From positions 1 to 38,850 of IMG/VR virus record IMGVR_UViG_3300036783_000169: a stretch of DNA of 38,850 bases. The stretch is one strand, 5' to 3'. The notes below the pieces were generated by a model. That model saw nothing but the letters and a program-made list of their open reading frames with translations. It had not been told where the DNA came from and did not search any database. A program made the position numbers and the translations under genes. The stretch is from a virus. Lineage: Duplodnaviria; Caudoviricetes. Shown here one piece after another: positions 6,713 to 38,850 of the stretch (position 1 is its first letter; every line of letters begins with the position of its first letter).

Positions 6713-6741
6713 GTATCATAGGGTATCATAGGGGGTATGAC
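6713..6741. promoter_or_regulatory. Bidirectional -10 (TATCAT/TATGAT); leaderless promoter of the tas operon
   Basis: GTATCATAG twice; 6723-6741 is 18/19 identical to 13862-13880. Confidence 0.65.
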
Positions 6742-7174
6742 TCGGCACTCAATATCCACCTATGTGCGTGAGCAGTTCTTCGCCGGCGTCCACGACCCCG
6801 AAGAAATCGCCCGGCGCTACCTCACCGACGCGCTCGAAGCGGACGACCCCGACGCGTGGCTCCTCCCCGCCATCCGCCACAGTGTCGGCGCGAGCTTCTC
6901 GTCCATCCAGGCCGCTGTCCGCGGGACCCAACCAAGTAACGGCACCGCCCAAGACGCAAGCGGTCCCGCGCGGCAGCGCCATAACGAGGGGTACGTGTAC
7001 AACCCAGACACCCGCGAATGGATTCCGCTCGGGAAGGCCACCATCAGCGACTTCACCGCCGCGATCCGGTGGCACGAGAAGATGATCGAAGGGCACCACG
7101 CCACGATTGACGAGTACCGGACGTACATCAAGAAGATACGGGAAGCGGGTGTCACATGCCTTGACGAGACGTGA
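6737..7174 (+). CDS. Hypothetical protein, first gene of the tas operon
   Basis: Leaderless ATG; carries an in-frame guide unit. Confidence 0.8.
   Translation: MTRHSISTYVREQFFAGVHDPEEIARRYLTDALEADDPDAWLLPAIRHSVGASFSSIQAAVRGTQPSNGTAQDASGPARQRHNEGYVYNPDTREWIPLGKATISDFTAAIRWHEKMIEGHHATIDEYRTYIKKIREAGVTCLDET
6920..6970 (+). ncRNA. TIGR-like unit inside CDS (ACCAAGTA/AGACGCAA)
   Basis: Perfect 9-bp stem CGCGGGACC/GGTCCCGCG around two CCA-N8-RCGG motifs. Confidence 0.8.
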
Positions 7175-7532
7175 GCGGGGCCCACCGCACTAACGGCCCC
7201 CTGCGGGCTCACAAATGCTACGGCCCCGCCCACGGACGGTACGGACCCATGGTGGTCTCAAGCCACACACGGCGGGGCCCATTGCGGATACGGCGCAAGC
7301 CCACGGTTCAAACGGCCCAGAAGCAACACGGCGCAAGCCCAGGGTTCCAACGGCCGCCCAGACCACCAGCGGCTTCACGGAAGCTCACACCAGTAACGGC
7401 GGTACGGCCCAATGGCGCAACGGCACACAGATGCCCATGGATGTCACGGCCACTCCCGCCCAGGCTACAGACGGCCAGGCCGCCCAGTGTTGCTGCGGCC
7501 AACTGGCTCATACCGGGTGCGGCGGGCTGGCC
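7175..7532 (+). ncRNA. TIGR-like array 1: 7 dual-spacer units plus 1 single spacer
   Basis: 15 consecutive YCA-N8-RCGG motifs with unique spacers; loop hairpins (e.g. GGC-GCAA-GCC) alternate with edge stems. Confidence 0.92.
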
Positions 7533-7555: not shown

Positions 7556-8479
7556 ATGACAGTACAAGCGGACGCTCATGGTGCCAGCGGCGAACACGCC
7601 CAGCGATCAAGCGGCGTCCCCGCTGACAACCCCTACCCGTGGGGCAATCTGGCGACGTTCCGTTCGGCTGCGGAAGGGCTGACGGACGCGATCAAAGCAC
7701 GGTGCAGCGTCGAGAACCGGGTCAAGCGGGGTGGCGGCGCGGTCGACGTGGTCCAGGCCAATGCGATGGTGCAGGCCGCGCGGCAGCTCGAGGAAACCTA
7801 CCGCGACCTGCTCATGGCCGCGTACCAGAGCCAGGTCCCCGCCGAGGTGCAGGACTGGGCGGCGGGCATCCCCGGGCTCGCGACCGGTGAGCTGTTCCCC
7901 CGGATGCTCGGGATGATCGGCCACCCCCGCATCGCTATCCCGTGGGTCTGGGAAGAGGGAGCGGACGCACCGGTCCCCGCCGGGCCCCCGTACATCAGGG
8001 ACCGGCACCAGCAGCTGTGGCAATACTGCGGGGCAGGTGACCCCCGGACCCGCCCGTCGGTGCTCGGGCACCGGCCCGACCGGGACGAACTCCTCAAGGC
8101 GGGGAAACTCAAATCGGTCCGCCCCCTGCTATTCACGTTCAGTGCATACCTTGTCCGGATGCACACCCGGTCCGACGCGGTCGCCGAGTCTGCGTATTAC
8201 AAGGTGTATGAGGACGCGCGGGCGGAAGCGGCGGGGCATACCGGCAAGTGCATACCCGGTTCGTGGCCGTCGACGTGCGCGGGTACCCACCGCAGGCACG
8301 AGTACCTGTGCAAGAACACGAAGCGGCCCCCGATGAACTCGAACGGGTGCGGGACGGTCCTGCACCCCGAGTGGGGTGAACCGGGGTCACCGTGGCGACC
8401 CGGACATCTGAATATGCATGCTCACAGGGTTCTTCACAAAGAGTTTCTGCATGACCTGTGGCGGATCAGCGCACTGTGA
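7556..8479 (+). CDS. tasA: TasA-like Nop/IS110-C-domain RNA-binding protein without nuclease domain, 307 aa
   Basis: GAAGGA RBS. N-terminal coiled coil, then WAAGIPGL, LWQYCG, YYKVYEDAR and GHLNMHAHRVLHKEFLHDLW. No RuvC/DEDD N-terminus. Flanked by dual-spacer arrays. Confidence 0.8.
   Translation: MTVQADAHGASGEHAQRSSGVPADNPYPWGNLATFRSAAEGLTDAIKARCSVENRVKRGGGAVDVVQANAMVQAARQLEETYRDLLMAAYQSQVPAEVQDWAAGIPGLATGELFPRMLGMIGHPRIAIPWVWEEGADAPVPAGPPYIRDRHQQLWQYCGAGDPRTRPSVLGHRPDRDELLKAGKLKSVRPLLFTFSAYLVRMHTRSDAVAESAYYKVYEDARAEAAGHTGKCIPGSWPSTCAGTHRRHEYLCKNTKRPPMNSNGCGTVLHPEWGEPGSPWRPGHLNMHAHRVLHKEFLHDLWRISAL
7570..7619 (+). ncRNA. TIGR-like unit within the first ~21 codons of tas (TGGTGCCA/GCGATCAA)
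   Basis: GGACGCT-CA-N8-GCGGC...GCCCA-N8-GCGGCGTCC. Confidence 0.8.
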
Positions 8480-8484
8480 GGACC

Positions 8485-8727
8485 GGGCCGGGCCGCCCAG
8501 GGCACCTACGGCGGCGACGCTCATGCACGATACGGTGGCCTGGCCCACGATCAAGACGGCGCAAGCTCAGTGACGCAACGGCCAGCCGCCCAGAGTTGTC
8601 ACGGCACTCAGTGGCTCAAGCACGATACGGCGGTACGGCTCAGGAGGGTTACGGAAACCAAGGGAATCACGGCCACGCCGCCCAACACGCTGACGGCAGG
8701 ATCACTGCTCACTGTCAAGACGGCGGC
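8485..8727 (+). ncRNA. TIGR-like array 2: 5 units
   Basis: 10 motifs; first unit closed by a 13-bp stem with G.U pairs. Confidence 0.92.
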
Positions 8728-9476: not shown

Positions 9477-9614
9477 ACGGTGGCCTGGCCCACGCTGGAA
9501 ACGGCCAGCCGCCCATGCAGCTAACGGCACGTACCTGCTCAAGCTGGTGACGGCGGCTGGCCCAAGATGGCCACGGCGGCACACGACCGCTCACACGAGC
9601 TACGGCCCAGCCGC
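9477..9614 (+). ncRNA. TIGR-like array 3: 1 single spacer plus 2 units
   Basis: 5 motifs; 11-bp stem GGCCAGCCGCC/GGCGGCTGGCC. Confidence 0.9.
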
Positions 9615-9638
9615 ATACGAAAGGAGTACGATACTCAC

Positions 9639-9863
9639 ATGGCTGAGGAGCGGAAACCACTCGAACGGGTCACGGTCAACCTTGTCCCGCGCGCGTCGAA
9701 AGCCCTCCAGCTCGCCGTCGACATCACCGGCGACTCCAAGACCGACACCATCAACCGGGCCATCCAGATGTACGCATACTTTGAGCACACCGTACGGGAA
9801 GGCGGCACCATCCTGGTCCGCGACCAGGACGGGGGTGAGCTGTCCGTCGTCCGCTGGTACTGA
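9639..9863 (+). CDS. Ribbon-helix-helix (CopG-like) regulator
   Basis: AAAGGAG RBS; RVTVNL...SKTDTINRAI. Confidence 0.8.
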   Translation: MAEERKPLERVTVNLVPRASKALQLAVDITGDSKTDTINRAIQMYAYFEHTVREGGTILVRDQDGGELSVVRWY

Positions 9864-9870
9864 CCTGGCG

Positions 9871-10059
9871 CGGCCCATGCTTGTTACGGCCCTGGCGGCT
9901 CAGAGAGGTGACGGCCGGCCCACGCCGTTAACGGCCCATGGTGGCCCAAGCTTGTAACGGCCGGCCCAGGCGAACTACGGCACATGCTGCTCATTGTCGA
10001 TACGGCCAGGCCGCTCATAGCAGTGACGGCAACCGCCCATGGTAGCAGCGGCGGCCTGG
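9871..10059 (+). ncRNA. TIGR-like array 4: 4 units
   Basis: 8 motifs with edge and loop stems. Confidence 0.92.
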
Positions 10060-13875: not shown

Positions 13876-14622
13876 ATGACCAAGCGACTTCACCAAGTAG
13901 TAGTCATCGAGCGAGGTGTCCAAAGCGATACTGAGCGTGTCCTAGAGACTTATAAGCGCTTGTTTGCGCTGGGCGGCGACCAGAACCCGATGAAGGGGCT
14001 GGTCAGGACCTACCAGCCGCTCCGTGAGGGCGGCGTCCAGCATCCTCCGCAGAGCCAGAAGGTGCAGGTGAAGGCGTCGGATCTCATCCCCGAGATCAAG
14101 CAGGCGCTCGCCACCTGGTTCGGCGTGAAGTACACGCGGGAGTTCTGGAACACGAAGGCGACCGCAGACCTGGTGGTCGACGGCGAGACGATCCTGACCG
14201 GCGTGCCGACGACCTTTTTCCTGTTCCTCGAGGCGCAGGTCGCGGCGATCCGGTCGGGTCTGATCGCCCGGTTCCCGACGCTGGACCCTGCCGAGGACTG
14301 GCATCACGACCCGGCGCGTGGCATCTGGGTGACCGAACCGCGGGTCACCGAGTCGACCGCGAAGGTGCCCCAGGTGCAGCTGCTCGCCCCGGCGACGAAG
14401 GAGCACCCGGCGCAGGTCCGCCCGTATGACACGGACGAGAAGGTCGGCGAGTGGACCAGCACGAAGCTGTCGGGTCAGCTTCCCGCCGACGACGTGAGCG
14501 CCATGTTCGACCGGTGCTCTAAGCTGCTCGTCGCGATCAAGCAGGCGAGGGAACAGGCGAACAGCATCGAAGTAGAGGACAAGGATGCTTCGCCGGTCCT
14601 TGACTGGATATTCGGAGCATGA
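13876..14622 (+). CDS. Conserved actinobacterial/phage hypothetical protein, 248 aa
   Basis: Leaderless after TATCAT; motifs RTYQP, FLFLE, ATKEHPAQV, AREQAN (family recalled as DUF7873-like, unverified). Confidence 0.85.
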   Translation: MTKRLHQVVVIERGVQSDTERVLETYKRLFALGGDQNPMKGLVRTYQPLREGGVQHPPQSQKVQVKASDLIPEIKQALATWFGVKYTREFWNTKATADLVVDGETILTGVPTTFFLFLEAQVAAIRSGLIARFPTLDPAEDWHHDPARGIWVTEPRVTESTAKVPQVQLLAPATKEHPAQVRPYDTDEKVGEWTSTKLSGQLPADDVSAMFDRCSKLLVAIKQAREQANSIEVEDKDASPVLDWIFGA

Positions 14623-14675
14623 TGATGCCCAGTGCTGGAACGGCGCAAGCCCAAAAATCCAACGGCATCACATGA
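14618..14675 (+). ncRNA. Single TIGR-like unit (GTGCTGGA/AAAATCCA)
   Basis: TGATGCC/GGCATCA stem, GGC-GCAA-GCC loop, flanked by CATGA direct repeats. Confidence 0.85.
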
Positions 14676-19585: not shown

Positions 19586-19621
19586 GAACCTCAATATAGG
19601 TGAGGGGAGGTGGTTTGGTCA

Positions 19622-21227: not shown

Positions 21228-22241
21228 GTGTATGAGACCAGGGCCGCCATGACCAGCGCGTCGATCAACGACTTGCCGGACAGCGCGTTCGCGTACATCG
21301 AGAGCGGCGGGAAGAAGGACTCGTCGGGGAAGACGATCCCGCGGTCGCTGCGGCATTTCCCGGTCCACGACGAGGCCCACGCGAGGAACGCCCTGGCGCG
21401 GGCACCGCAGTCCCCGTTCGGTAAGGCGGCGATGCCGAAGATTCTCGCGGCGGCCCGGAAGTTCGGGATCAAGGTCTCCGGGCAGGACCGGGCGTTCGCG
21501 GGGATGGAACCGGACACGTCGGGGTGGCCGGAGCGCCGGTTCACGAAGTTCCCGCTGGAGATGCGCACCGAAGGGCAGGACGGGCCCGCTCACATCTGGG
21601 GGTACGCGGCGTGTTTCGACCGGCTGTCGAAGCGGCTCGGCGGGTTCGTGGAGCAGGTCAACCGGTCCGCGTTCAACGAGAGCAAGCAGGACGGGTGGCC
21701 CGACGTCGTCTGCCGCTACAACCACAAGGACGACTACCTGCTGGGGACGACGTACGCGCGGACGCTGGAGCTCGGGATCGACCCGACCGGGCTGATGTAT
21801 GACGTGCGCCCACCCCAGTCGAGGTCGGACATCCTGGAGTACGTGCAGCGCGGAGACATCCGCCACTCCTCGTTCGCGTTCCGGACGTTCCCCGGCGGCG
21901 ACGAATGGGGCGTGTCGGAACACAACTATCCGATGCGCACGCTGCTGTCGGTCGAGCTCGTCGACGTGGCCCCGGTTCTCGACCCCGCGTACCCGGACGC
22001 GACGGCGGGGGCGCGTGCGATGGACGGTGCCATCCGGTCGCTGTCGATGTGGGTGCAGGCCGAGCCCGATGAGGTCCGTGACAAGCTCGCCGAGAACCGT
22101 GCCATGGACTTCTTCAGGAGGACCGACAACATCGGGCCCCGCCAGAAGCAGAAGGTTGAGAAGAAGAACACGCTTACCGGTGCTCTGGCGCTGCTCGACC
22201 TGCTCGACAACTCCCAGGACCCGTATGCAGACCAGGGATAA
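21228..22241 (+). CDS. Prohead protease, HK97 family, with extra N-terminal domain
   Basis: GYAACF, GGFVEQV, YNH, SSFAF, LVDVAPVLDPAY. Confidence 0.92.
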   Translation: MYETRAAMTSASINDLPDSAFAYIESGGKKDSSGKTIPRSLRHFPVHDEAHARNALARAPQSPFGKAAMPKILAAARKFGIKVSGQDRAFAGMEPDTSGWPERRFTKFPLEMRTEGQDGPAHIWGYAACFDRLSKRLGGFVEQVNRSAFNESKQDGWPDVVCRYNHKDDYLLGTTYARTLELGIDPTGLMYDVRPPQSRSDILEYVQRGDIRHSSFAFRTFPGGDEWGVSEHNYPMRTLLSVELVDVAPVLDPAYPDATAGARAMDGAIRSLSMWVQAEPDEVRDKLAENRAMDFFRRTDNIGPRQKQKVEKKNTLTGALALLDLLDNSQDPYADQG

Positions 22242-22279
22242 GCCGTAATTACCCTGGATACCGTTGCTCGCTTGGGCCC
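22240..22279 (-). ncRNA. Stand-alone antisense TIGR-like unit (AGCGAGCA/GGGTAATT)
   Basis: GGCCCA-N8-ACGG-tat-CCA-N8-ACGGCT; TATGAT at 22298-22303. Confidence 0.75.
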
Positions 22280-26096: not shown

Positions 26097-26105
26097 CATG
26101 GGGTC

Positions 26106-26795
26106 GTGCACCTGGTCGTGGTCGTGCCGAGCCGGGGGCGTCCTGCCAGCGCCCGCCGTCTCGCTGGTGCTTTCCGGGACACCGCGGATTTTGACAGGAC
26201 GGACCTGCTGTTCGCCGTGGACGATGACGACCCGGAGCTGGCGGCGTACCAGGAGCTGGCCGATGAGGACCCGTGGGCCGGGCTGACGGTCCTCCCACAC
26301 CCCCGCAGGATCGGGCCCATCCTGAACGCGGTGGCTGTCAGCCTGGCCCCTTTCTGTAATTACCTGGGTTTCATGGGCGATGATCACCTGCCCAGCACGG
26401 ACGGGTGGGACCGGGCGCTGACCGGTGAGCTGGACGGGACGCTCGGGGTGGCGTACGGGAATGACCTGCACCAGGGGGCGAGGCTCCCGACCGCGATGGT
26501 GGTGTCGTCGGTGCTGATCCGGAAGCTGGGGTACTTCTGCCCGCCTGGCCTGACCCACCTGTACCTGGATAATTTCTGGGCGCTGCTCGGGTCGGTGACC
26601 CGGCTGGCGTACCGGGATGACGTGATCATCGAGCACCTGCACGTGGCGGCGGGGAAGGCCCCGATGGACGCCGGGTACGAGTTCAGCCTGGACCCGGGGC
26701 TGGACATGCAGGACAGGGTCGCGTACGACACGTTCCTTCGCGGGCGGTGGGAGGATGACCGGCGGATGATCGCAGAGATGATGACCGGTGCGTAA
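26106..26795 (+). CDS. GT-A glycosyltransferase (GT2-like)
   Basis: VVPSRGR, AVDDDD, MGDDH, IIEHLH. Confidence 0.88.
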   Translation: MHLVVVVPSRGRPASARRLAGAFRDTADFDRTDLLFAVDDDDPELAAYQELADEDPWAGLTVLPHPRRIGPILNAVAVSLAPFCNYLGFMGDDHLPSTDGWDRALTGELDGTLGVAYGNDLHQGARLPTAMVVSSVLIRKLGYFCPPGLTHLYLDNFWALLGSVTRLAYRDDVIIEHLHVAAGKAPMDAGYEFSLDPGLDMQDRVAYDTFLRGRWEDDRRMIAEMMTGA

Positions 26796-27390
26796 GCAGC
26801 TCCGCCCGTTTTACGACCAGCGGGACCTGGACCGGATCTACGCGACGTCGTATGACCACACGCGGTGGTCCGATCACGTGCAGCGGGTCGCCTATACCGC
26901 GCAAATTTTGCACCGCATGGCACCGTCCAGTGTCGCTGACCTGTCGTGCGGTGACGCGGCGATCGTGAACCAGGCCGGGCTCGCATGCCCCGTGCACTGC
27001 GGTGACCTGACCGGGGACTACGAGTTCAAGGGGCCGATCGAGGAGACAGTCGGCCTGATCCCGTATGTGGACGTTTTCGTATGTTCCGAGACGCTGGAGC
27101 ACCTGCGGGACCCGGACCTGGTCCTGAAGCTGATCCGGGTGAAGGCGGACCGGCTGCTGCTGTCCACCCCGGTCGGCGAGTGTGACGACACGAACCGCGA
27201 GCATCTCTGGGGCTGGGACACCGTTGACATGCGGGCTATGCTCACCCAGGCCGGGTGGACGGGTCAGGTTGACCTGCTCTGCCCGCCCCCCGCCTACTAC
27301 GTTTTCCAAGTCTGGCAGTGCGCTTTATGCCCAGCGCGCTGGTCACTGGCAGCGCCGGGTTCATCGGCCGGCACTTCACCCGCCGCCTGA
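26788..27390 (+). CDS. SAM-dependent methyltransferase
   Basis: VADLSCGD, CSETLEHLRDP. Confidence 0.8.
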   Translation: MRKQLRPFYDQRDLDRIYATSYDHTRWSDHVQRVAYTAQILHRMAPSSVADLSCGDAAIVNQAGLACPVHCGDLTGDYEFKGPIEETVGLIPYVDVFVCSETLEHLRDPDLVLKLIRVKADRLLLSTPVGECDDTNREHLWGWDTVDMRAMLTQAGWTGQVDLLCPPPAYYVFQVWQCALCPARWSLAAPGSSAGTSPAA

Positions 27391-28202
27391 TCCGGAACGG
27401 CTGGGACGTGTCTTGTGTTGATGTCAAGACAGGCCGGGACGCGCGGGAGTTCTTCACGTTCCCCCCTTCGGGCTACGACCTGGTGGTGCATGCCGCGGCT
27501 GTGGTCGGCGGCCGGGAGACCATCGACAACAATCCGCTCGCCCAGGCGGTCAACCTGGAACTTGACGCCGGGCTGTTCACCTGGGCGCGGCGGGCCAGGC
27601 CGGGGCGGATCGTGTACCTGTCCAGCTCGTCGGTGTACCCGGTCGCGTTGCAGGGCAGCGAAACCAAGTGCCGGCTCCACGAGCAGGACGTGAACTGGGC
27701 ATCGACGCAGGGACCCGACGCGCTGTACGGGTGGACCAAGCTGACCGGCGAGTACCTGGCCCGGCTCGCCCTCGCCGACGGGCAGGCCGTCACCATCGTC
27801 CGCCCGTTCTCCGGTTACGGACCCGACCAGGACGACACGTACCCGTTCCCCGCGTTCATCGACCGGGCGCTCGCCCGGGCTGACCCGTTCGCGATCTGGG
27901 GCAGCGGCGAGCAGGTCCGGGATTTCATTCACGTGGACGACATCGTGACGGCCACGCTGATGATGGTGGAACAGGAGATCAGCGGCCCCCTGAACCTCGC
28001 ATCGGGGCAGCCCGTGTCGATGCGCGAGCTCGCGGGGATGGTCTGCGAGCAGGCCGGGTATGAGCCCCGGTTCGAGTGCGTCCCGACCGCTCCGTCCGGT
28101 GTTGAGTGGCGGGTCGCGGACGTGCTGAAGGCCAGCCAGGTGTGGGTTCCGCGGGTTCGGCTGGCGCAGGGTATCCGCGAGGCGCTGAAATACCGTAAGT
28201 GA
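27327..28202 (+). CDS. NAD-dependent epimerase/dehydratase
   Basis: TGSAGFIG, SSSSVY, YGWTK, RDFIHVDD. Confidence 0.95.
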   Translation: MPSALVTGSAGFIGRHFTRRLIRNGWDVSCVDVKTGRDAREFFTFPPSGYDLVVHAAAVVGGRETIDNNPLAQAVNLELDAGLFTWARRARPGRIVYLSSSSVYPVALQGSETKCRLHEQDVNWASTQGPDALYGWTKLTGEYLARLALADGQAVTIVRPFSGYGPDQDDTYPFPAFIDRALARADPFAIWGSGEQVRDFIHVDDIVTATLMMVEQEISGPLNLASGQPVSMRELAGMVCEQAGYEPRFECVPTAPSGVEWRVADVLKASQVWVPRVRLAQGIREALKYRK

Positions 28203-28203
28203 C

Positions 28204-28866
28204 ATGAAAGCGTTCATCATCTTCCGGGACAGGGTGTCGTACGGGCGCAGGTGCGCGGACGCGATGCGCCGGGCGGGTCTCGATCCCGTGATTGTGGATC
28301 ACGGGTCGACGTGGCCTGCGGCGCTGGCGTGGCTAACCGGGCTGGAGCAGTGGGGCATCGAAGTGCTCTACAGAGGCGGGGGGCATCCCAGGCATCTGTG
28401 GGAGTGGACGCCGTTCCTTGAGTCGCGTGGCAGCGACCGGTACGTGGTGACCGACCCGGACGTGATCCCGTCACCGAAGTGCCCGCTGGACTGGCCGCAG
28501 CGGCTCTCCGGGCTGCTGGATGAGTACCCGGGCAGCGCGAAAGCCGGGCTGGGCCTCCGGATTGACAACCTGCCGGAGCATTACTCCCGCCGCCAGCAGG
28601 TCATCGAATGGGAAAAGCATTTCTGGGATGACGAGCTGGAACCGGGCGTGTTCCGCGCACCGCTGGACACGACCCTTGCCCTATACCGGGAACGGTCACG
28701 GTTCGAGCTGGACGGGCTGCGGACCGGGAACCCGTACGTGGCGGATCACCTCGCCTGGCATGAAGATTTCAGCGCACTACCGGCTGAGACCGCGTACTAC
28801 TATCAGAATGCAGAACGCGGAATCTCACATTGGGCGGTGCGTGGTGTCAGTGCCTGGGGCGACTAG
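28204..28866 (+). CDS. GT-A glycosyltransferase
   Basis: IVDHGST; VVTDPD (DxD). Confidence 0.8.
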   Translation: MKAFIIFRDRVSYGRRCADAMRRAGLDPVIVDHGSTWPAALAWLTGLEQWGIEVLYRGGGHPRHLWEWTPFLESRGSDRYVVTDPDVIPSPKCPLDWPQRLSGLLDEYPGSAKAGLGLRIDNLPEHYSRRQQVIEWEKHFWDDELEPGVFRAPLDTTLALYRERSRFELDGLRTGNPYVADHLAWHEDFSALPAETAYYYQNAERGISHWAVRGVSAWGD

Positions 28867-28870
28867 GAAA

Positions 28871-29395
28871 ATGATTCTCCCGGCGATCGCTTCGGCGGTC
28901 ACGGCGAATGAATCACAAGCGCTGGCTGACCTGGCCGCGGGTAAGACGGTCCTCGAGCTGGGTGCGTGGTTCGGGTACTCCACGGTGGTGCTGGCGTCGG
29001 TTGCCGAGCAGGTCACCAGCGTCGACTGGCATATGGGCGACGAGCACGCCGGGATCGTCGACACCTACGAGATCTTCACCTATAACCTGCAGCGGTACGG
29101 GGTGCAGGACCGGGTCGAGATAGTGCGGGAACGGTTCGAGGAGGCCCTGCCGCGGATGGCCGCGGAGGGACGCCGGTTCGACGGGTGCTTCCTCGACGCG
29201 CACCATTCCGAGGAATCCGTCACCCGGGACATCGGCCTCGCCGTGCCCCTTATCCGGCCAGGCGGGTTCTTCGCCTTCCACGATTACGGCAGGGGCCCGC
29301 ACAACGGCCATCCGGGGTTCGGGGTGACGGAGGCTGCTGACCGGTTCGGTGTCACGGGCCGCACCGGGTTCCTCGGCTGGGGGTTCGTCCCGTGA
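28871..29395 (+). CDS. Class I methyltransferase (Methyltransf_24-like)
   Basis: VLELGAWFGYST, FLDAHH, GGFFAFHDY. Confidence 0.88.
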   Translation: MILPAIASAVTANESQALADLAAGKTVLELGAWFGYSTVVLASVAEQVTSVDWHMGDEHAGIVDTYEIFTYNLQRYGVQDRVEIVRERFEEALPRMAAEGRRFDGCFLDAHHSEESVTRDIGLAVPLIRPGGFFAFHDYGRGPHNGHPGFGVTEAADRFGVTGRTGFLGWGFVP

Positions 29396-29622
29396 AGTAC
29401 TACACCTGCGACGGGTGCTCGGTGACGCTGACCGTCGAGCAGCGGAACAGGGTCACGGTCAGGAACACGTTCAATAAGCCGGTGACGCTGCATTACTGCG
29501 CGGCGTGCGCCGAGGCGCTCTGGCCTGAGCTGAAATCAGTGTTCGGGTGGACGAAGCAGAGGTTACGTACACGATGCTCCGCGACGGCGAGACTGACCGT
29601 AAGGTGCTCGCCGGGGCGGTGA
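29392..29622 (+). CDS. Zn-ribbon protein
   Basis: CDGC...CAAC. Confidence 0.55.
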   Translation: MKYYTCDGCSVTLTVEQRNRVTVRNTFNKPVTLHYCAACAEALWPELKSVFGWTKQRLRTRCSATARLTVRCSPGR

Positions 29623-29744
29623 CGTTTGACGTTGACACGGATGGTTTCATCCTGGGCGTGCACTGCCGGGACGGCGGCGACTGGGTGACCGCGCTTATCC
29701 AGCTCGTGCAGGCGGGCAAGATTCGGATCGACCTGGAGGGCTGA
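29547..29744 (+). CDS. Hypothetical protein
   Basis: Abuts ATG 29746. Confidence 0.5.
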   Translation: MDEAEVTYTMLRDGETDRKVLAGAVTFDVDTDGFILGVHCRDGGDWVTALIQLVQAGKIRIDLEG

Positions 29745-29745
29745 G

Positions 29746-30108
29746 ATGGCCACGGTGCAGATGCTGGTGACGATCAGCGGCAGTCATGCGAGCGGGAACC
29801 CGTGGCCGCCCGCCGGGGGCACCATCGAGCTGGACGACTGGGAATCCGATCACCTGATCCTGGGTGAGATGGCCCGCCCGGTGGGTGACGTGCCCCCACC
29901 GGAGCCTGAGCCTGAGCCTGAGACACCCGAACCCGTCTCGGAGGGGGAGGAGCCTGCCCCGTCCGGTGAGGTGCCCACGTCCGCACCGAAGGGCATTCAG
30001 CCGAAGGCCGATTGGGTCGCGTGGGCGATGGTGAACGGGCTGACCGAAGACGAGGCGAACCAGCTCACCAAGGCGGAGCTGATGGAGCAGTTCGGGGCGC
30101 GGGCATGA
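29746..30108 (+). CDS. Head-associated protein with C-terminal HeH-like motif
   Basis: GGAGG RBS; KADWVAWA...LTKAELM; PE linker. Confidence 0.75.
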   Translation: MATVQMLVTISGSHASGNPWPPAGGTIELDDWESDHLILGEMARPVGDVPPPEPEPEPETPEPVSEGEEPAPSGEVPTSAPKGIQPKADWVAWAMVNGLTEDEANQLTKAELMEQFGARA

Positions 30109-30172
30109 TGGGCGACAGGTTGCCCGTGACGGAGACCCGCGGCGGCGAAACACCGGGTGAGTGGGTGGTCGC

Positions 30173-30234
30173 CCCCGCCCCGGCCGTGCAGACTGTGAGC
30201 GATGAGGCCGCTTGGGCTGTGGGCCAAGACGGGG
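30173..30234 (-). ncRNA. Stand-alone antisense TIGR-like unit (CAGCCCAA/CAGTCTGC)
   Basis: 13-bp stem with three G.U pairs that form only on the minus strand; TATCAT at 30244-30249; lies within short ORF 30105-30272. Confidence 0.85.
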
Positions 30235-30268
30235 ACGGACACGATGATACCTCAGAGGGTGCGTCTGA

Positions 30269-30811
30269 GTGAACGGCGCGGTAACTGCCCGGGTCCGTGA
30301 CCTGCTCACCACGGTCCGGCAGCAGGAACGGCTATGGCAGAAAAAAGTGACGCTGCCTGACGACCGGTACACCCCGTGGATGCCATCGGATATAGCCCAG
30401 TTCATCGTGCTGCTGGTCGAGGCGATGGCTGAGGCGTCCGGGGACAGGTTTCTCGAGGTGGGCTGCGGGCCGGGCACGAAGATGCTGCTGGCCCGGGACT
30501 TGTTCGGGCTGGACGTGCACGGGTTCGACCGGGTCCCGGAGTACGTGGACGCGGCGAACGGGCTGGGCCTTGACGCGTTCCTCCAGGACGCCCTGACCTA
30601 CAGGGATTACGGAAAGTTCGACATCGTGTTTCTGAACCGGCCGTGCCGGGACCCGGTCTTGGAGCGGGAGCTGGAACGGACCGTGTGGACGCGGATGCGC
30701 CGCGGCGCGGTCCTGCTCCTCATGAATACCGAGATGAAGCCGCCGGAAACTCGCTGGCTCGTTGTCACCGACGACTGGGAATCAAAGCGAGCAATTTTTC
30801 TTAAGTTGTAG
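30269..30811 (+). CDS. Class I SAM methyltransferase
   Basis: FLEVGCGPG, FDIVFLNRP. Confidence 0.85.
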   Translation: MNGAVTARVRDLLTTVRQQERLWQKKVTLPDDRYTPWMPSDIAQFIVLLVEAMAEASGDRFLEVGCGPGTKMLLARDLFGLDVHGFDRVPEYVDAANGLGLDAFLQDALTYRDYGKFDIVFLNRPCRDPVLERELERTVWTRMRRGAVLLLMNTEMKPPETRWLVVTDDWESKRAIFLKL

Positions 30812-30812: not shown

Positions 30813-30874
30813 TCCCGTCCTGGCCGTTTCATTTCTGAGTCACAGGACCGTCCACCAGATGAGCCAGGACGGGA
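30813..30874 (-). ncRNA. Stand-alone antisense TIGR-like unit (TCTGGTGG/GAAATGAA)
   Basis: 13-bp stem TCCCGTCCTGGCT/GGCCAGGACGGGA; TATCAT at 30884-30889. Confidence 0.85.
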
Positions 30875-31766: not shown

Positions 31767-33179
31767 GTGGCCTACTCGCTACTGCACGCGGGCACGGTCC
31801 TGTCTGTCGGGGGCATCAACAGCATCGCCCCGTCCTGCACGTCCACCACGGCCGGCAGCATGCTGGTATGCCCCGTCTGGGCGCAGGGCTCCGTCACGTT
31901 CTCCCTGCCGGCCGGCTGGCGTGCCGCGGCGCCCCCCACCGGGTCCGGTTGCCGCGCGCAGGTCTGGTACTACCCGAACTGCCCCGCCGGGATCACCTCG
32001 GTCACGGTCAACACCAGCGCCTCCACCACCATAGTGGGGCAGGTCCTGGAGTTCACTGACCCGTCCGGGTCGAACCTGGTGCCGCTGGACGCGCAGGGCA
32101 CCCAGTTCGCCACTTCGCCGGCCACCCCGCAGGCCGTGGCGACCAGCACCGCCGCCATCGCGGGCGACCTGGTGGTCTGCGCCAGCGGCCTGGTGTTCGC
32201 GTCGGCCACCAGCAGCACCCTGACGCCCGGCGCCGGATTCACCTCGGCCGGGAATTACGGCAACGGCGCCACCCAGAACGGGCACGCCAGCTTCGACTAC
32301 CTGCTGAACTCGGGCGCGGGCGCGCAGACCGACTCGGTGGCGTTTACGGGCGCCAGCCCGTCCAGCTTCGCCGGGTGCATCGCCGCGTTCCGCATCGCCT
32401 CGGCTGGCCCTGGCCCCGTCCTTTTCGATTCGGTTGGCCCGTCTGCCAGCGGCTACACCGGCGTTTCCACCACCACGTCCCCGGCGACCTGGAGCCACAC
32501 TCTCACCAGCGGCGATACGGGGCTCCTGGTCGCGTTCGGGATCGACAACACGCCCGACTCCGGGTTCACGATCACCGGGGTTACCGCCGGCGGCGTGGCG
32601 ATGACCCAGGTCGGCGGCAAGGTTGAGTCCGGTACCGGCGGGGGCGGGTTCATCACGGTGTGGCAGCTGCTGAACCCGCCGACCGGAACCATCACCATCA
32701 GCGTGTCGTGGACCGGTATCGCGTTCACCAACGGCGGCCACCCGAACGGCGGGTCGATCGCGTTCACCGGAGCGGGCGCGTTCAGCGCACCGGTCACCGC
32801 CAACGGCAGCAGCACCATCCCGTCCGTGGCGGTCCCGACAGCCAGCACGTCTGGGATGGCCGCAGCGTTCGCTGTCTGCGGCTCGGCTTTCATCTCGGCT
32901 ACAGCCCCGCTGACTTCTAGATATCTCGGCGGGGCTGGCGGCCAGGGCGCTGGCTGGATGGCGGGCGGAACCGCTCCTGGAACCGGCAGCAGCGTCACGG
33001 CTGCCTGGTCGTCCAACTCCGACTGGTGGGCGGTCATCGGCGTCGAGGTTCAGCCCGCTGCCGCCGGAGGTCCTGTTTCAAGGCCGCAGCGGGTGCGCAG
33101 GAACGTGCAGGGCAACCCGGGCGCGATCCCGTCGCAGCACATCACGACCGAGCTCACGGGAGCCATTTACGGCCGTTAG
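31767..33179 (+). CDS. Putative virion surface protein, two beta-sandwich modules
   Basis: S/T/G/A-rich, 470 aa; GGAGG RBS. Confidence 0.75.
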   Translation: MAYSLLHAGTVLSVGGINSIAPSCTSTTAGSMLVCPVWAQGSVTFSLPAGWRAAAPPTGSGCRAQVWYYPNCPAGITSVTVNTSASTTIVGQVLEFTDPSGSNLVPLDAQGTQFATSPATPQAVATSTAAIAGDLVVCASGLVFASATSSTLTPGAGFTSAGNYGNGATQNGHASFDYLLNSGAGAQTDSVAFTGASPSSFAGCIAAFRIASAGPGPVLFDSVGPSASGYTGVSTTTSPATWSHTLTSGDTGLLVAFGIDNTPDSGFTITGVTAGGVAMTQVGGKVESGTGGGGFITVWQLLNPPTGTITISVSWTGIAFTNGGHPNGGSIAFTGAGAFSAPVTANGSSTIPSVAVPTASTSGMAAAFAVCGSAFISATAPLTSRYLGGAGGQGAGWMAGGTAPGTGSSVTAAWSSNSDWWAVIGVEVQPAAAGGPVSRPQRVRRNVQGNPGAIPSQHITTELTGAIYGR

Positions 33180-33187
33180 GGAGACAC

Positions 33188-33697
33188 GTGTCTAATTCGT
33201 ATATGGCGAGCCCGCGGGCGTCGACCACGCCGTTCCTCCCGGTGGCGACCGCTCTGGTTGCCGCGACCATCAAGACGGTCCTCCAGGTGGCCACCCCGAC
33301 GACCACTGATGTTGCCATCATCGGGTGGGGCTTGTCGTTCGATAACGCCGCCGGCGGTACCCAGGTACCGGGAATATGTTCCATACTCCATGACCCGACC
33401 GCGTGCACGGGCGGCACGGCGTACACGCCGGAACCGTGGGGGAACTCCCAGGCCCCGGCATCGCTCTGCGTCGGGGGCGCGGCGCTGACGGCCTACGCGC
33501 TGACCGAAGTGACGCCGACCGCCCCGGTTTACCTTGACACTCAGGAGGTCAGCCCGCAGTCCGGGTACGGCGTATTCTTCCCGGCCGACACCCGGCCGAG
33601 GGTCCAGCCGTCCCGGTTCGTCCGGGTACGGTGCACGTTCCCGGCCGCCGTCAACGTCATCCCGTGGATTCTCTGGGACGAACCCGCGCAGGGGTAA
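33188..33697 (+). CDS. Putative structural protein
   Basis: GGGAG RBS; beta-rich. Confidence 0.7.
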   Translation: MSNSYMASPRASTTPFLPVATALVAATIKTVLQVATPTTTDVAIIGWGLSFDNAAGGTQVPGICSILHDPTACTGGTAYTPEPWGNSQAPASLCVGGAALTAYALTEVTPTAPVYLDTQEVSPQSGYGVFFPADTRPRVQPSRFVRVRCTFPAAVNVIPWILWDEPAQG

Positions 33698-33700
33698 CCT

Positions 33701-36700
33701 ATGCCGCGCAGGGCAGCAGCGAACAGGCACCCGCCGGTCACCTACCCGCTGGGGTCGGCTGCGCTGCCGAAGATCGCGACGCTGACTGACACGTTCCCCG
33801 GGACCACCCTGAACGCGCAGTGGACCAGCTTCGGCACGGTCACGGTCGGTTCGGGACTGCTGACCCTGACCGATGTTGCCAGCTCCGCTGTCTACTCCGG
33901 TATCCAGTCCGCCGCCGCCTACGACCTGACCGCCTCGGCGATCTCCGTGCAGCTGGTCTCAGCGGGCACCCAGCTGAGCACGACCCAGGCGATTCTGCAG
34001 GCGCAGCTCGACTCGACGCACACGGTGTCGGTGTTCGCCGGCAACGGCACCCTGACCGCGCAGCATAACATCGGCGGGACGGTCTCGACGGTCGGCAGCC
34101 CGGCCACGTACAACCCGGCGACGATGGTGTGGCTGCGGCTGCGGGAGGCTGCCGGGACCCTGTTCTACGAGTATTCCGCTGACGGGATGACGTGGACGGC
34201 GCTGACGTCGGAGACGGACCCGTTCGCGCTGACCGCCGTGACCGCTGTCATCGAGCACGGCCAGTACGGCGGTTCGGACCCCCAGTCCTCGTCGCAGTGG
34301 GATAACGTCAGCAGCCCCGTGCTCACGCTGGCTGACAGCGGGGTGAGCGCTGAGACGCTGACGGTCGCCGTGTCGGCTGCTGCCCCGCTGGCAGACGCGG
34401 GCGTCTCGGCGGAGACGCTCACGGTCGCTGCTGCCGTCCCGTCCGCCGACACGGGTGCCGCAGCTGACACCCTGACGGTCACGTCGCTGGTCCCGCTGGC
34501 CGAGACGGGCACCTCGGCGCAGACGCTCGCGGTCACCGCCGCGGTCCCGGCAGCGGATGCGGGGACCAGCGCGGAAACCCTGGCTGTCTCCCAGGTGACC
34601 GCGGTGTCCCTGGCTGAGGCGGGGACCGGGACGGACACGGCGGGCGTGCTGCCCGTCCTGCCCGACGCTGGCACCGGGACAGACAGCCTGACCCTCGGCC
34701 CGGTCCTGGTAACGCTGGCTGACACCGGGTCGGGTGCGGACACGCTGACCCTGACCTCCCCGGTTCCCCTGGCTGACGCGGGGGCGGGGACGGACGCGGT
34801 CACGGCGACCGCGCAGACCACCCTGGCCGACGCCGGGGCTGGCGCGGACACGATCACGGCCCTCGCAGTCGTCCCGGTCGCGCTGACCGACAGCGGGCAG
34901 GGGACGGAAACGCTGGCTGTCCTCGCGGTCATCGCGGTCCCGCTGGCTGACACGGGCACCGGTTCGGACAGCCTGGGTGTCACGTCGCTGGTCCCGCTGG
35001 CCGACGCGGGCACCGGCGCGGACGTACTGACGGTTACGTCCCTGGTCCCGCAGGCTGACGCGGGGTCGGGCAGTGACACGCTGACGACCCTCGCGGTTGT
35101 CCCCGTTGCGCTGGCCGACGCGGGGACGGGCACGTCCCAGGCCCCGGTCTTCACCGCCGCAACGTCCCTGGCTGACGCTGGCAGCGGGACGGATGCTGTC
35201 ACATCGGTCACGGCCACTGTCCTGGCTGACAGCGGGTCCGGCACCGACGCGTTCTCCAACGGCGCGTTCACGTCCGTCCCGCTGACCGACACGGGGACGG
35301 CCGCGGACACGCTGGCCGTCACATCGGTCACCGCTGTCCCGCTGCCCGACGCGGGGACCGGCACGGACACGCTGGCACTGGCTTCCGGGGTGCCGCTGGC
35401 TGATACCGGGGCCGGGACAGACACGGCCGGGGTCATCCCGGGCCTGGCTGACACCGGTACTGGTGCGGACCTGCTGGCCATCCCCGGTTTCGCCGGCACC
35501 GGCACCGCGGCTGACACGTTCACCGCCGCGCAGCCCACCGGGCTGGCTGACACGGGCACGGGCAGTGACACGCTGGCCGTCCCCGCGTTCGCCGACGCGG
35601 GGACCAGCGCGGACAGCATCAGGCTGACGCAGCCCACCGCGCTGGCCGACACGGGAACCGGAACTGACACGCTGGCCGTCCCAGCGTTCGCTGACACCGG
35701 GTCCAGCTTCGAGATCTTCAACAACGGGTCGGGGCAGACTGTCCCGTTCACGGAGACAGGCCAGGCGTCTGACGGGCTTGCCGTCCCCGCGTTCGCTGAC
35801 ACGGGCACCGGCAGTGACACGCTGGGCATGCAGGAGACTGTCGCGTCCGCGCTGGCTGATACCGGGACCAGCGCGGACGCGGTCACCGTCACCGCCCTGG
35901 TGCCGCTGGCGGAGACCGGGACCGGCGCGGATCTTGCCGCAGCCGCCGTCCCGGCCGCCCTGACTGACACGGGCAGCGCGGCGGACGCTTTCACGGCAGC
36001 GCAGCCGGTCACCCTGGCGGACACCGGGGCCGGCACCGAAACGTTCGCCGGGGGGGCTTCGGCACCGACCGCGTTCACCGACACGGGGGCGTCCGCTGAG
36101 ACGGCCAGCCTGGTGCAGCCTGCCCCGCTGGGCGAGACCGGGCAGGGCACCGACGCGTTCTGGCCCGGTACCGTCCTGGCTGAGGGCGGCAGCGGCACGG
36201 ACAGCCTGGGCACCTCCCAGGTCGCGTCCGTCCCGCTGGCCGACGGCGGGGCCGCTGCCGACACCCTCGCAGCGGTCCCGGGCCTGACCGACGCGGGGAC
36301 CAGCTCGGAGACGTTCGCCGTCGCGGTCGTGTTCGCGTTCACCGACACCGGGCACAGCGCCGAGGCCCTGTTCGTCCCGGCGTTCAGCGACGGCGGGTCC
36401 GCCACTGACACGCTTCTCATCCCCGCGTACTCTGACACCGGGTCCGGGGCGGACGCGTTCGGGACACCGGTCAAGGCGCAGCAGCTCCCCGACACGGGCA
36501 CCGGCACGACCAGCCTGTCGATCGCGCTGCTGTTCCAGTTCACCGACGGGGGCAGCTCGACCGAGTCGATCCACACGGTCAACATCGTCCCGGCGAAATC
36601 ATCCAGCGCGGTGAACCACGTCATGTACTCCCCGGCGCGGGTGTCAGACCCGCGGGATAGCATCACCATGACGAGCAGCCGGGTGGCAGCCGCGGCCACG

Positions 36701-36769
36701 GCCGCCGACCCGCGGGACGGTTTCTCCGCCGTCACCAAACCGGGGACATCCACGCCGTCCGTGAAATAG
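33701..36769 (+). CDS. 1022-aa fibre-like protein with tandem LADxGxGxDxL repeats
   Basis: Lectin-like N-terminal region followed by dozens of ~15-21-aa repeats. Confidence 0.85.
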   Translation: MPRRAAANRHPPVTYPLGSAALPKIATLTDTFPGTTLNAQWTSFGTVTVGSGLLTLTDVASSAVYSGIQSAAAYDLTASAISVQLVSAGTQLSTTQAILQAQLDSTHTVSVFAGNGTLTAQHNIGGTVSTVGSPATYNPATMVWLRLREAAGTLFYEYSADGMTWTALTSETDPFALTAVTAVIEHGQYGGSDPQSSSQWDNVSSPVLTLADSGVSAETLTVAVSAAAPLADAGVSAETLTVAAAVPSADTGAAADTLTVTSLVPLAETGTSAQTLAVTAAVPAADAGTSAETLAVSQVTAVSLAEAGTGTDTAGVLPVLPDAGTGTDSLTLGPVLVTLADTGSGADTLTLTSPVPLADAGAGTDAVTATAQTTLADAGAGADTITALAVVPVALTDSGQGTETLAVLAVIAVPLADTGTGSDSLGVTSLVPLADAGTGADVLTVTSLVPQADAGSGSDTLTTLAVVPVALADAGTGTSQAPVFTAATSLADAGSGTDAVTSVTATVLADSGSGTDAFSNGAFTSVPLTDTGTAADTLAVTSVTAVPLPDAGTGTDTLALASGVPLADTGAGTDTAGVIPGLADTGTGADLLAIPGFAGTGTAADTFTAAQPTGLADTGTGSDTLAVPAFADAGTSADSIRLTQPTALADTGTGTDTLAVPAFADTGSSFEIFNNGSGQTVPFTETGQASDGLAVPAFADTGTGSDTLGMQETVASALADTGTSADAVTVTALVPLAETGTGADLAAAAVPAALTDTGSAADAFTAAQPVTLADTGAGTETFAGGASAPTAFTDTGASAETASLVQPAPLGETGQGTDAFWPGTVLAEGGSGTDSLGTSQVASVPLADGGAAADTLAAVPGLTDAGTSSETFAVAVVFAFTDTGHSAEALFVPAFSDGGSATDTLLIPAYSDTGSGADAFGTPVKAQQLPDTGTGTTSLSIALLFQFTDGGSSTESIHTVNIVPAKSSSAVNHVMYSPARVSDPRDSITMTSSRVAAAATAADPRDGFSAVTKPGTSTPSVK

Positions 36770-36772
36770 GAG

Positions 36773-37717
36773 GTGCCCGTGGGGTCGACGGTTTTCTACG
36801 ACAGCATCAACGAGGTCGCGACGCTCACCATCATCTTCTCCGTGTCCGGCACCCCGACCGACCCGTCGACCGTGTCGTGCGTGATCACCGACCCGGCCGG
36901 CCTGCAGACCGTCCACACGTACGCCGGGGCCCCGCCGAACGACATCACGAAGCAGGGGACCGGCGGGTACCAGCTGCTGGTCCTGTGCAACCCGTCCGAA
37001 ACCGGCATCGACGGCCTGTGGTCTTATACGTGGATCGGGACCGGGGCCGCGTCGGATGTGCAGCCCGGGACGTGGCGGGTGACACCGCTGGCCCACGCGA
37101 CCTGGTATGTCGGCCCGGAGGAGCTGAAAGACCGCCTCGACATTGACGATTCGGCTGACGACTCGGGGATTGTCGACGTGTGCAACGCGACGTCCCGGTG
37201 GATCGACGAGTTCTGCGGGCGGCATTTCTTCCGGATGACCGACACGCGCACCTACCAGCCGCTGGACATCTGGCTGCTCACCATCGACGACCTCGTGTCC
37301 GTCACGTCCCTGAAAATCGACCTGGACGGCGACGGGGTGTTCGAGACCACGTGGACGCAGGGTGCTGATTACATGCTGCGGATCGGGGACGGGCAGTTCA
37401 GCAAGATGCGGTACGGCGAACCCCGCCCCTACACCCAAGTGCAGGTCCTCCGCGGCGGGGGGACATGGTTCCCGTTTACCTGGCCATTCACGCACCTTGA
37501 CCGCGTTCAGATCACGGGGATGTTCGGGTGGCCGCAGGTACCCCCTGCCGTTCATCAGGCCGCGCTGCTGATCGCCTCCGACTGGTTTAAGTTGAAGGAC
37601 GCGCCGTGGGGAGTCGCGGGGATGGGCGAGCTCGGCGTCATCCGCACCAACCCCAACCCGTGGGTCGCTGACCAGCTCCGCCCTTATATCAGGGGGCTCG
37701 GCAAGGTCGGGGTTTAG
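36773..37717 (+). CDS. Head-to-tail adaptor with N-terminal extension
   Basis: EELKDRL...IDEFCGRHF...FGWPQVPPAVHQAAL. Confidence 0.8.
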   Translation: MPVGSTVFYDSINEVATLTIIFSVSGTPTDPSTVSCVITDPAGLQTVHTYAGAPPNDITKQGTGGYQLLVLCNPSETGIDGLWSYTWIGTGAASDVQPGTWRVTPLAHATWYVGPEELKDRLDIDDSADDSGIVDVCNATSRWIDEFCGRHFFRMTDTRTYQPLDIWLLTIDDLVSVTSLKIDLDGDGVFETTWTQGADYMLRIGDGQFSKMRYGEPRPYTQVQVLRGGGTWFPFTWPFTHLDRVQITGMFGWPQVPPAVHQAALLIASDWFKLKDAPWGVAGMGELGVIRTNPNPWVADQLRPYIRGLGKVGV

Positions 37718-37719
37718 CC

Positions 37720-38412
37720 GTGGCGAAGCACCCGGCGCACAAGCGGACCAAGGCGCAAGCCGCCGCGGCGGTGAAGTTCGCCGCTGCCGGACGCGCATCG
37801 CAGGCTAAGAAGCGGGCGGCGGAGAAGGCGAAGGGCCTGCCGACCAGGACAGCGAAGCAGACGCAATCGACCGCGAAATTCGCCGCTGCCGGACGGGCCG
37901 CTCAGGCTAGGAAGCGGGCCGGGCTGAAACCGCTGCCGAAAGCTACCCGGGCACTGGCAGGCGACCAGGCCGTCAGACGCATGGGCCGTGAAGCCGTTTC
38001 GCGGTTGGGCCCGGTCGCCTGCCTACCGGTTAACCCTTACATGATACTGGCTGAGACGAATTGGACGCAAGGCTGCTGTGCGGCTACGGCCATCGCCTAC
38101 CACCTGTACGCCCATACTGGCATCATGGCGTCCCAAGGGGATGTGCGTGAGTTGCACGATGCCGTTGCCGACCCCAGCGGCGCGCGCATCCCCGAACTAC
38201 TCGAAGCAGCCTGCGACGGGTTCGCCGGGGTCCGGCTGGCCCGGTTCTGGCCGCTGGACACGCCGCTGCCCGGCAGCATCGCGGGCCTGACCGTGCCGGC
38301 AGGGTCGCACGCCGTCCTGCTCCTGTCCGGGGCGGCGTGCGTCTCCTGGGGCCGCGTCCGCCCCTGCGCGGCCGCCGAGGAGGCGTGGTGGGCGGAATGG
38401 GAATGCCAGTGA
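37720..38412 (+). CDS. Protein with basic N-terminus and papain-like C-terminal motifs
   Basis: KFAAAGRA twice; QGCCAATA, SHAVLL, VSWG. Confidence 0.6.
   Translation: MAKHPAHKRTKAQAAAAVKFAAAGRASQAKKRAAEKAKGLPTRTAKQTQSTAKFAAAGRAAQARKRAGLKPLPKATRALAGDQAVRRMGREAVSRLGPVACLPVNPYMILAETNWTQGCCAATAIAYHLYAHTGIMASQGDVRELHDAVADPSGARIPELLEAACDGFAGVRLARFWPLDTPLPGSIAGLTVPAGSHAVLLLSGAACVSWGRVRPCAAAEEAWWAEWECQ
37956..38023 (-). ncRNA. Antisense intragenic TIGR-like unit (ACCGCGAA/TGCGTCTG)
   Basis: 16-bp stem with one G.U on the minus strand; TATCAT at 38041-38046. Confidence 0.88.
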
Positions 38413-38600
38413 GCAGGAAGGACAAGGGTTTCGGGAGCACCAGGGGCCGGGTCGGTGACGCGATTGAGATACGTCCCTGGTCGACCGGGATCACGGCGGA
38501 CCATCCGCTGTGCCGGAAATGCACCTGGGTTCACCGGGGTGGCAAGTTCGCGCTGAAGTTCGTCAACCGGGCCTGCCGGATACACGGGAAGCTGGCCTGA
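38409..38600 (+). CDS. Small hypothetical protein
   Basis: GTGA overlap; CRKC...CRIH. Confidence 0.55.
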   Translation: MSRKDKGFGSTRGRVGDAIEIRPWSTGITADHPLCRKCTWVHRGGKFALKFVNRACRIHGKLA

Positions 38601-38603
38601 GCC

Positions 38604-38850
38604 ATGGCTGACTACGACGGGATACGCGGCGGGATGGCGACGCTGCTGAACAGGGTGATCGGCATCCGGGCGATGCCCGACGCGCCCGGTGCGATCTCCC
38701 CCCCGGTCGCGGTCATCCTCCCTGGCCGTCCGGCGATCACGTACGGGGAGACCCTGGACGGCGAGGTCGACCTCAACCTACTGGTCGTCGTGCTCCTGTC
38801 CGCCGCCAACGAAGAGTATGGGCAGCGGAACCTTGACGCGTTCCTCGCCT
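38604..38850 (+). CDS. Tail terminator-like protein, truncated by window end
   Basis: ISPPVAVILPG...LLVVVLLS...QRNLDAFL; position after head-tail genes. Confidence 0.65.
   Translation, partial: MADYDGIRGGMATLLNRVIGIRAMPDAPGAISPPVAVILPGRPAITYGETLDGEVDLNLLVVVLLSAANEEYGQRNLDAFLA

Follow-up and report, generated by a model that had tools for sequence, protein, structure and literature searches.

A short stem-loop unit lying antisense within a late gene of the virus record analysed here is probably a guide for the TIGR protein TasA, with its cognate site at 37849-37865 in that same gene. We consider it likely that this guide targets the alleles carried by sibling phages, and that the phage's own allele has been silently recoded to escape. 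The record is linear, 38,850 nt long, GC-rich and derived from a soil metagenome; the whole of it is referred to below as the window, and coordinates given with no record name are positions within it (Table 1).

The window contains terminase, portal, prohead protease, capsid and connector genes. Relatives of its capsid protein, at 68-82% identity, are found mostly on larger soil virus contigs, so the window is probably a fragment. Tas relatives were looked for in prokaryote genomes and none was found, so no host was identified by this route, and an Rfam scan of the window returned tRNA only (tRNA-Lys at 15630-15704). The gene that harbours the unit (37720-38412) has no family match and is real, with 29 matches counting itself. 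Elsewhere in the window, a free-standing HNH endonuclease gene lies between terminase and portal (18833-19594, minus strand; PHROG E 1e-59), glycosyltransferase, epimerase and methyltransferase genes are interspersed among the head genes (25086-30811), and 33701-36769 encodes a protein of 1022 aa built from decapeptide-like repeats.

The effector of the guide system is encoded by a single tas gene. Its structure model has a pLDDT of 90.9, and in a Foldseek search the top 10 rows were all TasH/TasR; against TasR (9mty) the model aligns with Z 15.8 and rmsd 2.2 over 182 residues. The protein also matches the NCBIfam family TIGR_Tas (E 3.7e-9) with 36.9 bits, which is under the family cut-off of 100, and searches of Pfam and PDB by sequence found nothing. 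Model residues 31-307 align to TasR 110-295, leaving about 30 residues before them, and as modelled TasA is without an HNH or RuvC domain ahead of the coiled coil. There is in addition a resemblance to ISCro4 (Z 11.5) and to a PHROG 'transposase' (E 1.3e-9); the ISCro4 alignment begins at residue 124 of that protein and residue 28 of the model, and includes no DEDD/RuvC catalytic domain. Members of this TasA clade carry an insertion at residues ~248-284 with conserved H248, C252, C265, H270 and H284, a possible zinc site. The small helical gene just upstream of tas gave no family, fold or Atlas match, and its product is a possible dedicated partner of TasA.

Guide halves in these phages read YCA-N8-R-CG. 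Allowing one mismatch, 93 halves and 50 adjacent pairs were counted; of 274 bases that directly follow the 8-mer, 235 are A and 32 are G. The halves pair into stem-loop units, which form arrays around tas (7556-8479) and occur as solo units elsewhere. Each unit has contiguous 8-nt spacers between its C and D boxes, and the alternating GGY/NN motifs of the VIPR type are absent. The arrays at 7180-7523 and 8495-8724 share their strand with tas, as do those of the related records G002, G016 and G033. Across 129 stems, 87 G-U pairs were counted against 22 A-C pairs; together with the unambiguous arrays of relatives, this places the RNA of unit 37956-38023 on the minus strand, antisense to the gene that hosts it. 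The opposite strand as guide RNA, which would make the 37858 site canonical, was ruled out by the stem register and the G-U counts.

A scan of 25 further related records found many units in G035 alone (13), and one candidate each in six. Record G001 (99 kb, 83% complete) has 16 solo stem-loop guides and no tas was found in it; a Tas protein may serve these guides in trans, or the gene may lie in the missing part of the record. The same phage family also has a distant Tas relative (L021/L022, near 9500-11100) whose guides follow another grammar, rich in CAGCCA. Within the window, 9560-9606 (plus strand) and 2134-2177 (minus strand) carry an almost identical spacer pair. The guides just 3' of tas (8495 in the window, 61173 in G016) resemble the 3' end of their own tas in frame, at 11/16 and 14/16 respectively, and on that resemblance could serve either for targeting of a rival tas or for autoregulation.

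Table 1. Features of the guide system and of its target sites. Positions are those of the window unless another record is named.
Feature	Position	Strand	Remark
Small helical gene	6737..7174	+	just upstream of tas, kept at this place by at least 8 related loci
Guide array upstream of tas	7180..7523	+	unit scan
TasA gene	7556..8479	+	Nop/coiled-coil fold, no N-terminal nuclease domain in the model
Guide array downstream of tas	8495..8724	+	includes the unit whose match at 1789 is chance-level
Further guide clusters downstream of tas	9488..10052	+	unit scan
In-frame site of guide 14627 in DUF7873 gene	14596..14612	+	13/16, three silent third-position differences
Solo guide directly after DUF7873 gene	14627..14666	+	
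In-frame site of guide 22277 in prohead protease gene	21915..21931	+	10/16, all differences silent, Ser codon-box switch
Solo guide directly after prohead protease gene	22242..22277	-	
In-frame site of guide 30224	29998..30014	+	13/16, silent differences; L196 orthologue 14/16
Solo guide after head-tail connector-like gene 29746-30108	30183..30224	-	
In-frame site of guide 30864	30731..30747	+	13/16, silent differences, two G-U compatible
Solo guide directly after methyltransferase gene 30269-30811	30823..30864	-	
Host late gene (230 aa)	37720..38412	+	flanked by head-tail adaptor and tail terminator genes
Probable cognate site in canonical order, A-N1-rc(B), 15/16	37849..37865	+	codons 44-49 of host gene
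Reversed-order match rc(B)-N4-A, 16/16	37858..37877	+	rc(B) 37858-37865, gap 37866-37869, A 37870-37877
Solo stem-loop TIGR guide unit	37956..38023	-	inserted antisense in host-gene linker
Spacer B, 8 nt	37974..37981	-	
Spacer A, 8 nt, then conserved purine	37998..38005	-	
Exact reversed gap-4 matches of G002 and G035 guides in other related phages	L284:685, G020:85855, G022:41273		

The unit at 37956-38023 folds as a long stem-loop (z -4.9). The protein linker that it interrupts has nothing at this place in distant homologues and insertions in close ones: here G001 carries a pair of antisense units, L199 and L201 each carry a single unit in sense, and none of these units shares the spacers of 37956-38023. 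Neither a sigma-70-like promoter nor a terminator was found near the unit. The original prediction had singled out an exact opposite-strand match to both spacers about 80 nt away, and this was borne out, with 8/8 for each spacer and a 4-nt gap; the base after the A copy also equals the conserved purine, making it 17/17. No assembly error underlies the match, since 33000-38850 has 0 differences from an independent assembly, probably of the source sample. For the 34 in-phase units, the exact matches expected in the whole window number 0.024 for the two opposite-strand orders with gaps of 0-6, and 0.050 for four orders, and we infer that a match within ~150 nt of its own unit is about 100-fold rarer still. 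The weaker match that had been reported for an array-2 unit (14/16 at 1789-1808) is likewise present and, much as its author had said, at chance level, being one of 41 with two or fewer mismatches over 44 order-by-gap cells. The surrounding stretch, 1380-1920, is non-coding and has operator-like palindromes and repeated short motifs. A reversed gap-0 match of 15/16 at 3211, beside a -35-like hexamer, is also at chance level.

The first reading of the sequence overlooked that the exact match at 37858-37877 overlaps a second match, of 15/16. The B half is shared with a site in the order A-N1-rc(B), whose left-hand A copy matches at 7/8. The sole mismatch, at position 3, is silent: the gene has the rare Thr codon ACA (4% usage) where the guide spells ACC. 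The tripeptide Thr-Ala-Lys stands in frame on either side of Gln-Thr-Gln, with a period of 21 nt, and the reversed 16/16 match exists because of this arrangement; a gap of 4 preserves the reading frame, as does a gap of 1. None of 28 homologues has the tripeptide, so that both copies are private to this lineage. The reversed match thus probably arose incidentally, from a second in-frame Thr-Ala-Lys that is private to this lineage, and that second copy could stem from chance, from local duplication or from a scar.

Structural work on Tas proteins bears on which of the two orders is the functional one. In the solved complexes of TasA, TasH and TasR, as described in the accessible part of one report (10.64898/2026.08.11.744272), box C and the first paired guide base sit at the outer unwinding junction. 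From the C-5 rule and the 8-nt 3' overhangs given in the available text of another (PMC12045711) we derive a target order of A then rc(B); the order rc(B)-N4-A puts both box-C ends at the centre and so is reversed with respect to the solved complexes. The same available text has TaTasR tolerating gaps of 1-2 bp only, with cleavage stopping above 2 bp (PMC12045711). A tandem opposite-strand target, A then rc(B) with a gap of 0-2, is the arrangement that the sequence statistics for A-N1-rc(B) fit and that the 37858-37877 site does not.

The canonical site in the late gene is one of a family. In a search within 600 nt of each unit at three mismatches, canonical gap 1 was narrowly the top cell (7 of 144 units; the next cell had 6), and its local matches have their mismatches at target positions 3, 6, 12 and 15. 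When positions 3, 6, 9, 12 and 15 are masked, four window units match at 12/12, 31-226 nt from the box-C anchor, against an expectation of 0.011, with the mask itself chosen from the same four matches. In the adjacent gene, each of these four first masked sites begins at a codon boundary. Their mismatches, 10 in total, are without exception silent, an outcome with a chance of 0.003-0.009 if third bases are free. All four units of the window's late region, which are antisense to late genes, fit this canonical in-frame rule. Matches of single spacers to local sequence (16 against 7.7 +/- 2.8) are a lead only.

Because the mask had been drawn from these cases, a peptide-level test was run on all 150 guides, a match being defined as canonical order, gap 1 and phase 0 over 17 bp. 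A full six-codon match within 600 nt was found for 8 of the 150 guides and was absent for 142; the null gave 0 in 60 x 150 swaps. Five of the eight are in the window, among them unit 22277 (prohead protease), which this test added to the first four, and the other three (G001 42555, G016 106654 and L007 547) come from outside the set on which the rule was made. The other 59 combinations of order, gap and phase gave 0-3, with the higher counts in the less informative phases. Relaxing the match to 5 of 6 residues gave 16 guides, against 1-5 in six null sets. Among 4,088 predicted genes of related phages, canonical peptide matches were found for 17 guides, self included, against 8.7 +/- 2.0 after re-pairing (reversed gap 4 gave 11), and three of them are cross-phage.

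The spacers themselves bear a trace of their source. Over the 150 guides, GC content at spacer positions 3 and 6 is 72-78%, against 37-59% elsewhere, and a codon model favours a gap of 1 modulo 3 in phase 0 (z 8.3 for all guides, 6.5 for the 116 non-window guides), with a signature that is equal for the canonical and reversed orders. The signature at positions 3 and 6 shows that the spacers originate from coding sequence, read in a fixed phase. The original prediction had raised spacer acquisition from neighbouring DNA, and in this it was on the right track: the spacers most likely come from the neighbouring gene and the match is beyond chance, probably by way of the canonical A-N1-rc(B) site rather than rc(B)-N4-A.

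The phages' own copies of the sites differ from their guides more than would be expected. Ten sites were compared (the eight full matches and two 5/6 cases), selected on peptide match and not on DNA difference. Synonymous codons differ in 24 of 40 instances, where 17.7 would be expected (P 0.017). Among the 12 Ser/Leu/Arg codons, 7 lie in another codon box than in the guide, against an expectation of 3.1 (P 0.012). For several guides, distinct orthologous alleles in relatives have fewer mismatches than self: 11/23 for unit 22277, 7/16 for G001 21626, 9/19 for G016 106654, 4/22 for L199 and 1/27 for unit 30224. An IMG/VR search with the 22277 guide yielded 16 matches, one of which falls on the orthologous site in the protease gene and scores 15/16, where self scores 10/16; with the G001 21626 guide, 0 of 36 matches were orthologous. 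The best sites of relatives also retain a mismatch at a position 3 or 6.

Other units have no such alleles in the present sample. None of 19 orthologous alleles beats self for unit 37956, all having at least four mismatches, and the sampled alleles for units 30864 and 14627 gave 0/19 and 0/3. This suggests that these three guides come from the phage's own recent allele and would act on close siblings that have not been sampled. In IMG/VR the unit 37956 guide, in canonical order, has exact matches at 85 loci, none resembling the window; the scan comprised 71 distinct contexts, spread evenly across gaps 0-4 (13, 15, 11, 14 and 18). The available portion of one report describes editing by ParTasR in yeast as abolished by internal single mismatches (10.64898/2026.07.30.739390); the single position-3 mismatch in 37849-37865 may be insufficient for immunity.

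It is unlikely, on balance, that TasA uses the canonical geometry, tolerating positions 3 and 6, as a roadblock on the phage's own genes, with third positions simply drifted and the guides serving late-gene or lysogeny control in a VIPR-like manner. The fixed codon phase of all local matches would suit such a role, as would the antisense placement of the four late-region units, the single mismatch of unit 37956 and the fact that guide peptides are closer to self than to most sampled relatives; the G016 guide next to tas could, moreover, base-pair with that gene if two G-T wobbles are allowed. Third-position tolerance does not account for the Ser/Leu/Arg box switches, however, which alter first and second codon positions, and the 22277 site is mismatched at 6/16 while differences overall are commoner than between random alleles. 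A self-directed roadblock had been part of the original prediction; it is possible at unit 37956, with its one mismatch, whereas the family pattern points to self-avoidance. More remote is a relic footprint, in which the phage took its guides from DNA next to them, its own sites then escaped and no live targets are left, the right-hand copy being perhaps a scar or duplication. Three of the five window units have no better allele and both tripeptide copies are private to the lineage, as a relic would have it, but stems and boxes are intact, linker units persist in several lineages with new spacers, and other guides do have better-matching alleles. That all the local matches are due to chance is scarcely credible: the host region is rich in Ala and Lys (5 Ala-Lys per 80 aa) and the mask was selected after inspection of the data, but 8 of 150 guides matched against 0 in 9000 swaps, three of them out of sample.

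We regard it as very unlikely that TasA proteins of this clade recognise rc(B)-N4-A, with 37858-37877 as a perfect self-target. The match itself, 16/16 or 17/17 with the purine and adjoining its own unit, speaks in favour. Some enrichment of the geometry was also seen, in a test that the original prediction had proposed: in 4.6 Mb of related, partly redundant DNA, exact reversed gap-4 matches were found for 3 of 149 other guides against a null of 0.33 (1 of 45 re-paired sets was as high), and G001 has three self matches at two mismatches against ~0.5 per cell. The enrichment does not extend to one mismatch (12 against 11.7 expected), and two of the three exact matches, one of which sits in a terminase-like gene, are out of their guides' codon phase. 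Across 76 units in their five related contigs, no exact self-match was found in any of 44 cells; reversed gap 4 gave none at one or fewer mismatches and nine at two, against a mean of 6.2 per cell. The low weight given to this geometry reflects the lack of a one-mismatch excess, the out-of-phase matches and the flat outcome of earlier tests. As a target rule it also has a polarity opposite to the structures and a gap beyond the 1-2 bp tolerated by TaTasR, and the local family matches are all canonical gap 1. With no local recurrence and no excess in own contigs or at one mismatch, reversed gap 4 was rejected as a general rule. Canonical gap 1 in the same 4.6 Mb gave 0 exact matches (null 0.38) and 12 at one mismatch against 13.7.

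The explanation that we favour, a guide aimed at sibling alleles with self recoded to escape, can be outlined as a series of steps. Both spacers would derive from a single uninterrupted run of six codons in the neighbouring gene, with the last base of the third codon falling in the gap. A guide so copied would select for silent escape in self, and would then discriminate against siblings that have not been recoded. TasA binds DNA and represses transcription, according to the accessible part of a recent report (10.64898/2026.09.09.750476), and binding of TasA with its guide could act in cis on the DNA of a co-infecting relative, blocking its transcription or replication. Inheritance might be biased without cutting, through a cis block of replication, packaging or transcription or through recombination at the bent site, and tight linkage would mean that recombinants inherit the guide along with the immune allele, much as happens in intronless homing. 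Against this explanation, no perfect canonical target was found, and there is no nuclease to account for a drive. More tentatively, and at somewhat less than even chances, solo TIGR guides in general may be RNA-programmed, nuclease-free homing elements: codon-phase copies of neighbouring genes whose own alleles the phage recodes, served by one trans-acting TasA that blocks the unrecoded alleles of co-infecting relatives, and together a natural, multiplexed allele drive.

The natural targets and the acquisition of spacers are stated to be unknown in the available parts of the TIGR papers (PMC12045711, 10.64898/2026.09.09.750476, 10.64898/2026.08.11.744272), and targets have stayed open because split guides of 16-18 nt yield many false matches. 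A rule that specifies 17 bp in canonical order, a fixed codon phase, an adjacent gene and a silently different self cuts this problem, and can be applied to the 6,685 published arrays. The locus family supplies matched allele pairs for direct tests of binding and repression, and suggests a role for nuclease-free TasA in competition between close relatives. If the homing-element reading is true, guide and immune allele spread together, and the loci show how TIGR spacers are acquired. In the open literature, subscription papers (such as that on TasH gap-DNA, PDB 9vzx) and bioRxiv supplements aside, we found no prior report of natural TIGR targets, codon phase or recoded self alleles.

The system is closest in its parts to the stem-loop TIGR-TasA systems PlTasA, BlTasA and MbTasA, which, in the accessible text of the papers describing them (PMC12045711, 10.64898/2026.09.09.750476, 10.64898/2026.08.11.744272), likewise combine a nuclease-free Nop/coiled-coil protein with stem-loop units that carry two spacers between box C and box D, with arrays that flank tas and with units lying within coding sequence. 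It differs from them in a box D that is CG preceded by a conserved purine, in an inferred target of 8+1+8, in solo guides up to 30 kb from tas and beside the genes that they spell, and in codon-phased spacers with recoded self alleles. The T4 free-standing homing endonucleases SegF, SegG and MobE, as covered in the available text of PMC2988022, offer a parallel of another kind: an element lies hundreds of bases from its site in a conserved neighbour gene and, when infections are mixed, exerts its effect on related phages, an effect that we can only suppose here. One hallmark of intronless homing, a neighbour-gene target in which the element's own allele differs, appears to be present from the sequences compared; a site-specific nuclease, to judge from the model, is not. 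Unlike those endonucleases, the present elements would be RNA-guided, with an effector supplied in trans from one tas gene and lacking a nuclease domain.

IS110 bridge-RNA recombinases share the Nop-like RNA-binding core and the use of two guides on opposite strands, whereas here there are many single-loop guides in place of one two-loop bridge RNA, and no N-terminal catalytic domain. The nearest codon-aligned parallel, going by the available part of its description, is VIPR (10.64898/2026.04.26.720920), which also comprises phage-encoded, RNA-guided silencers of competitors with targets aligned to codon third positions. The protein fold and RNA grammar of VIPR are different, it skips the wobble base, and that available text reports finding no self-targeting matches; the TIGR guides of the window, in contrast, spell the third positions, and it is there that they differ from self.
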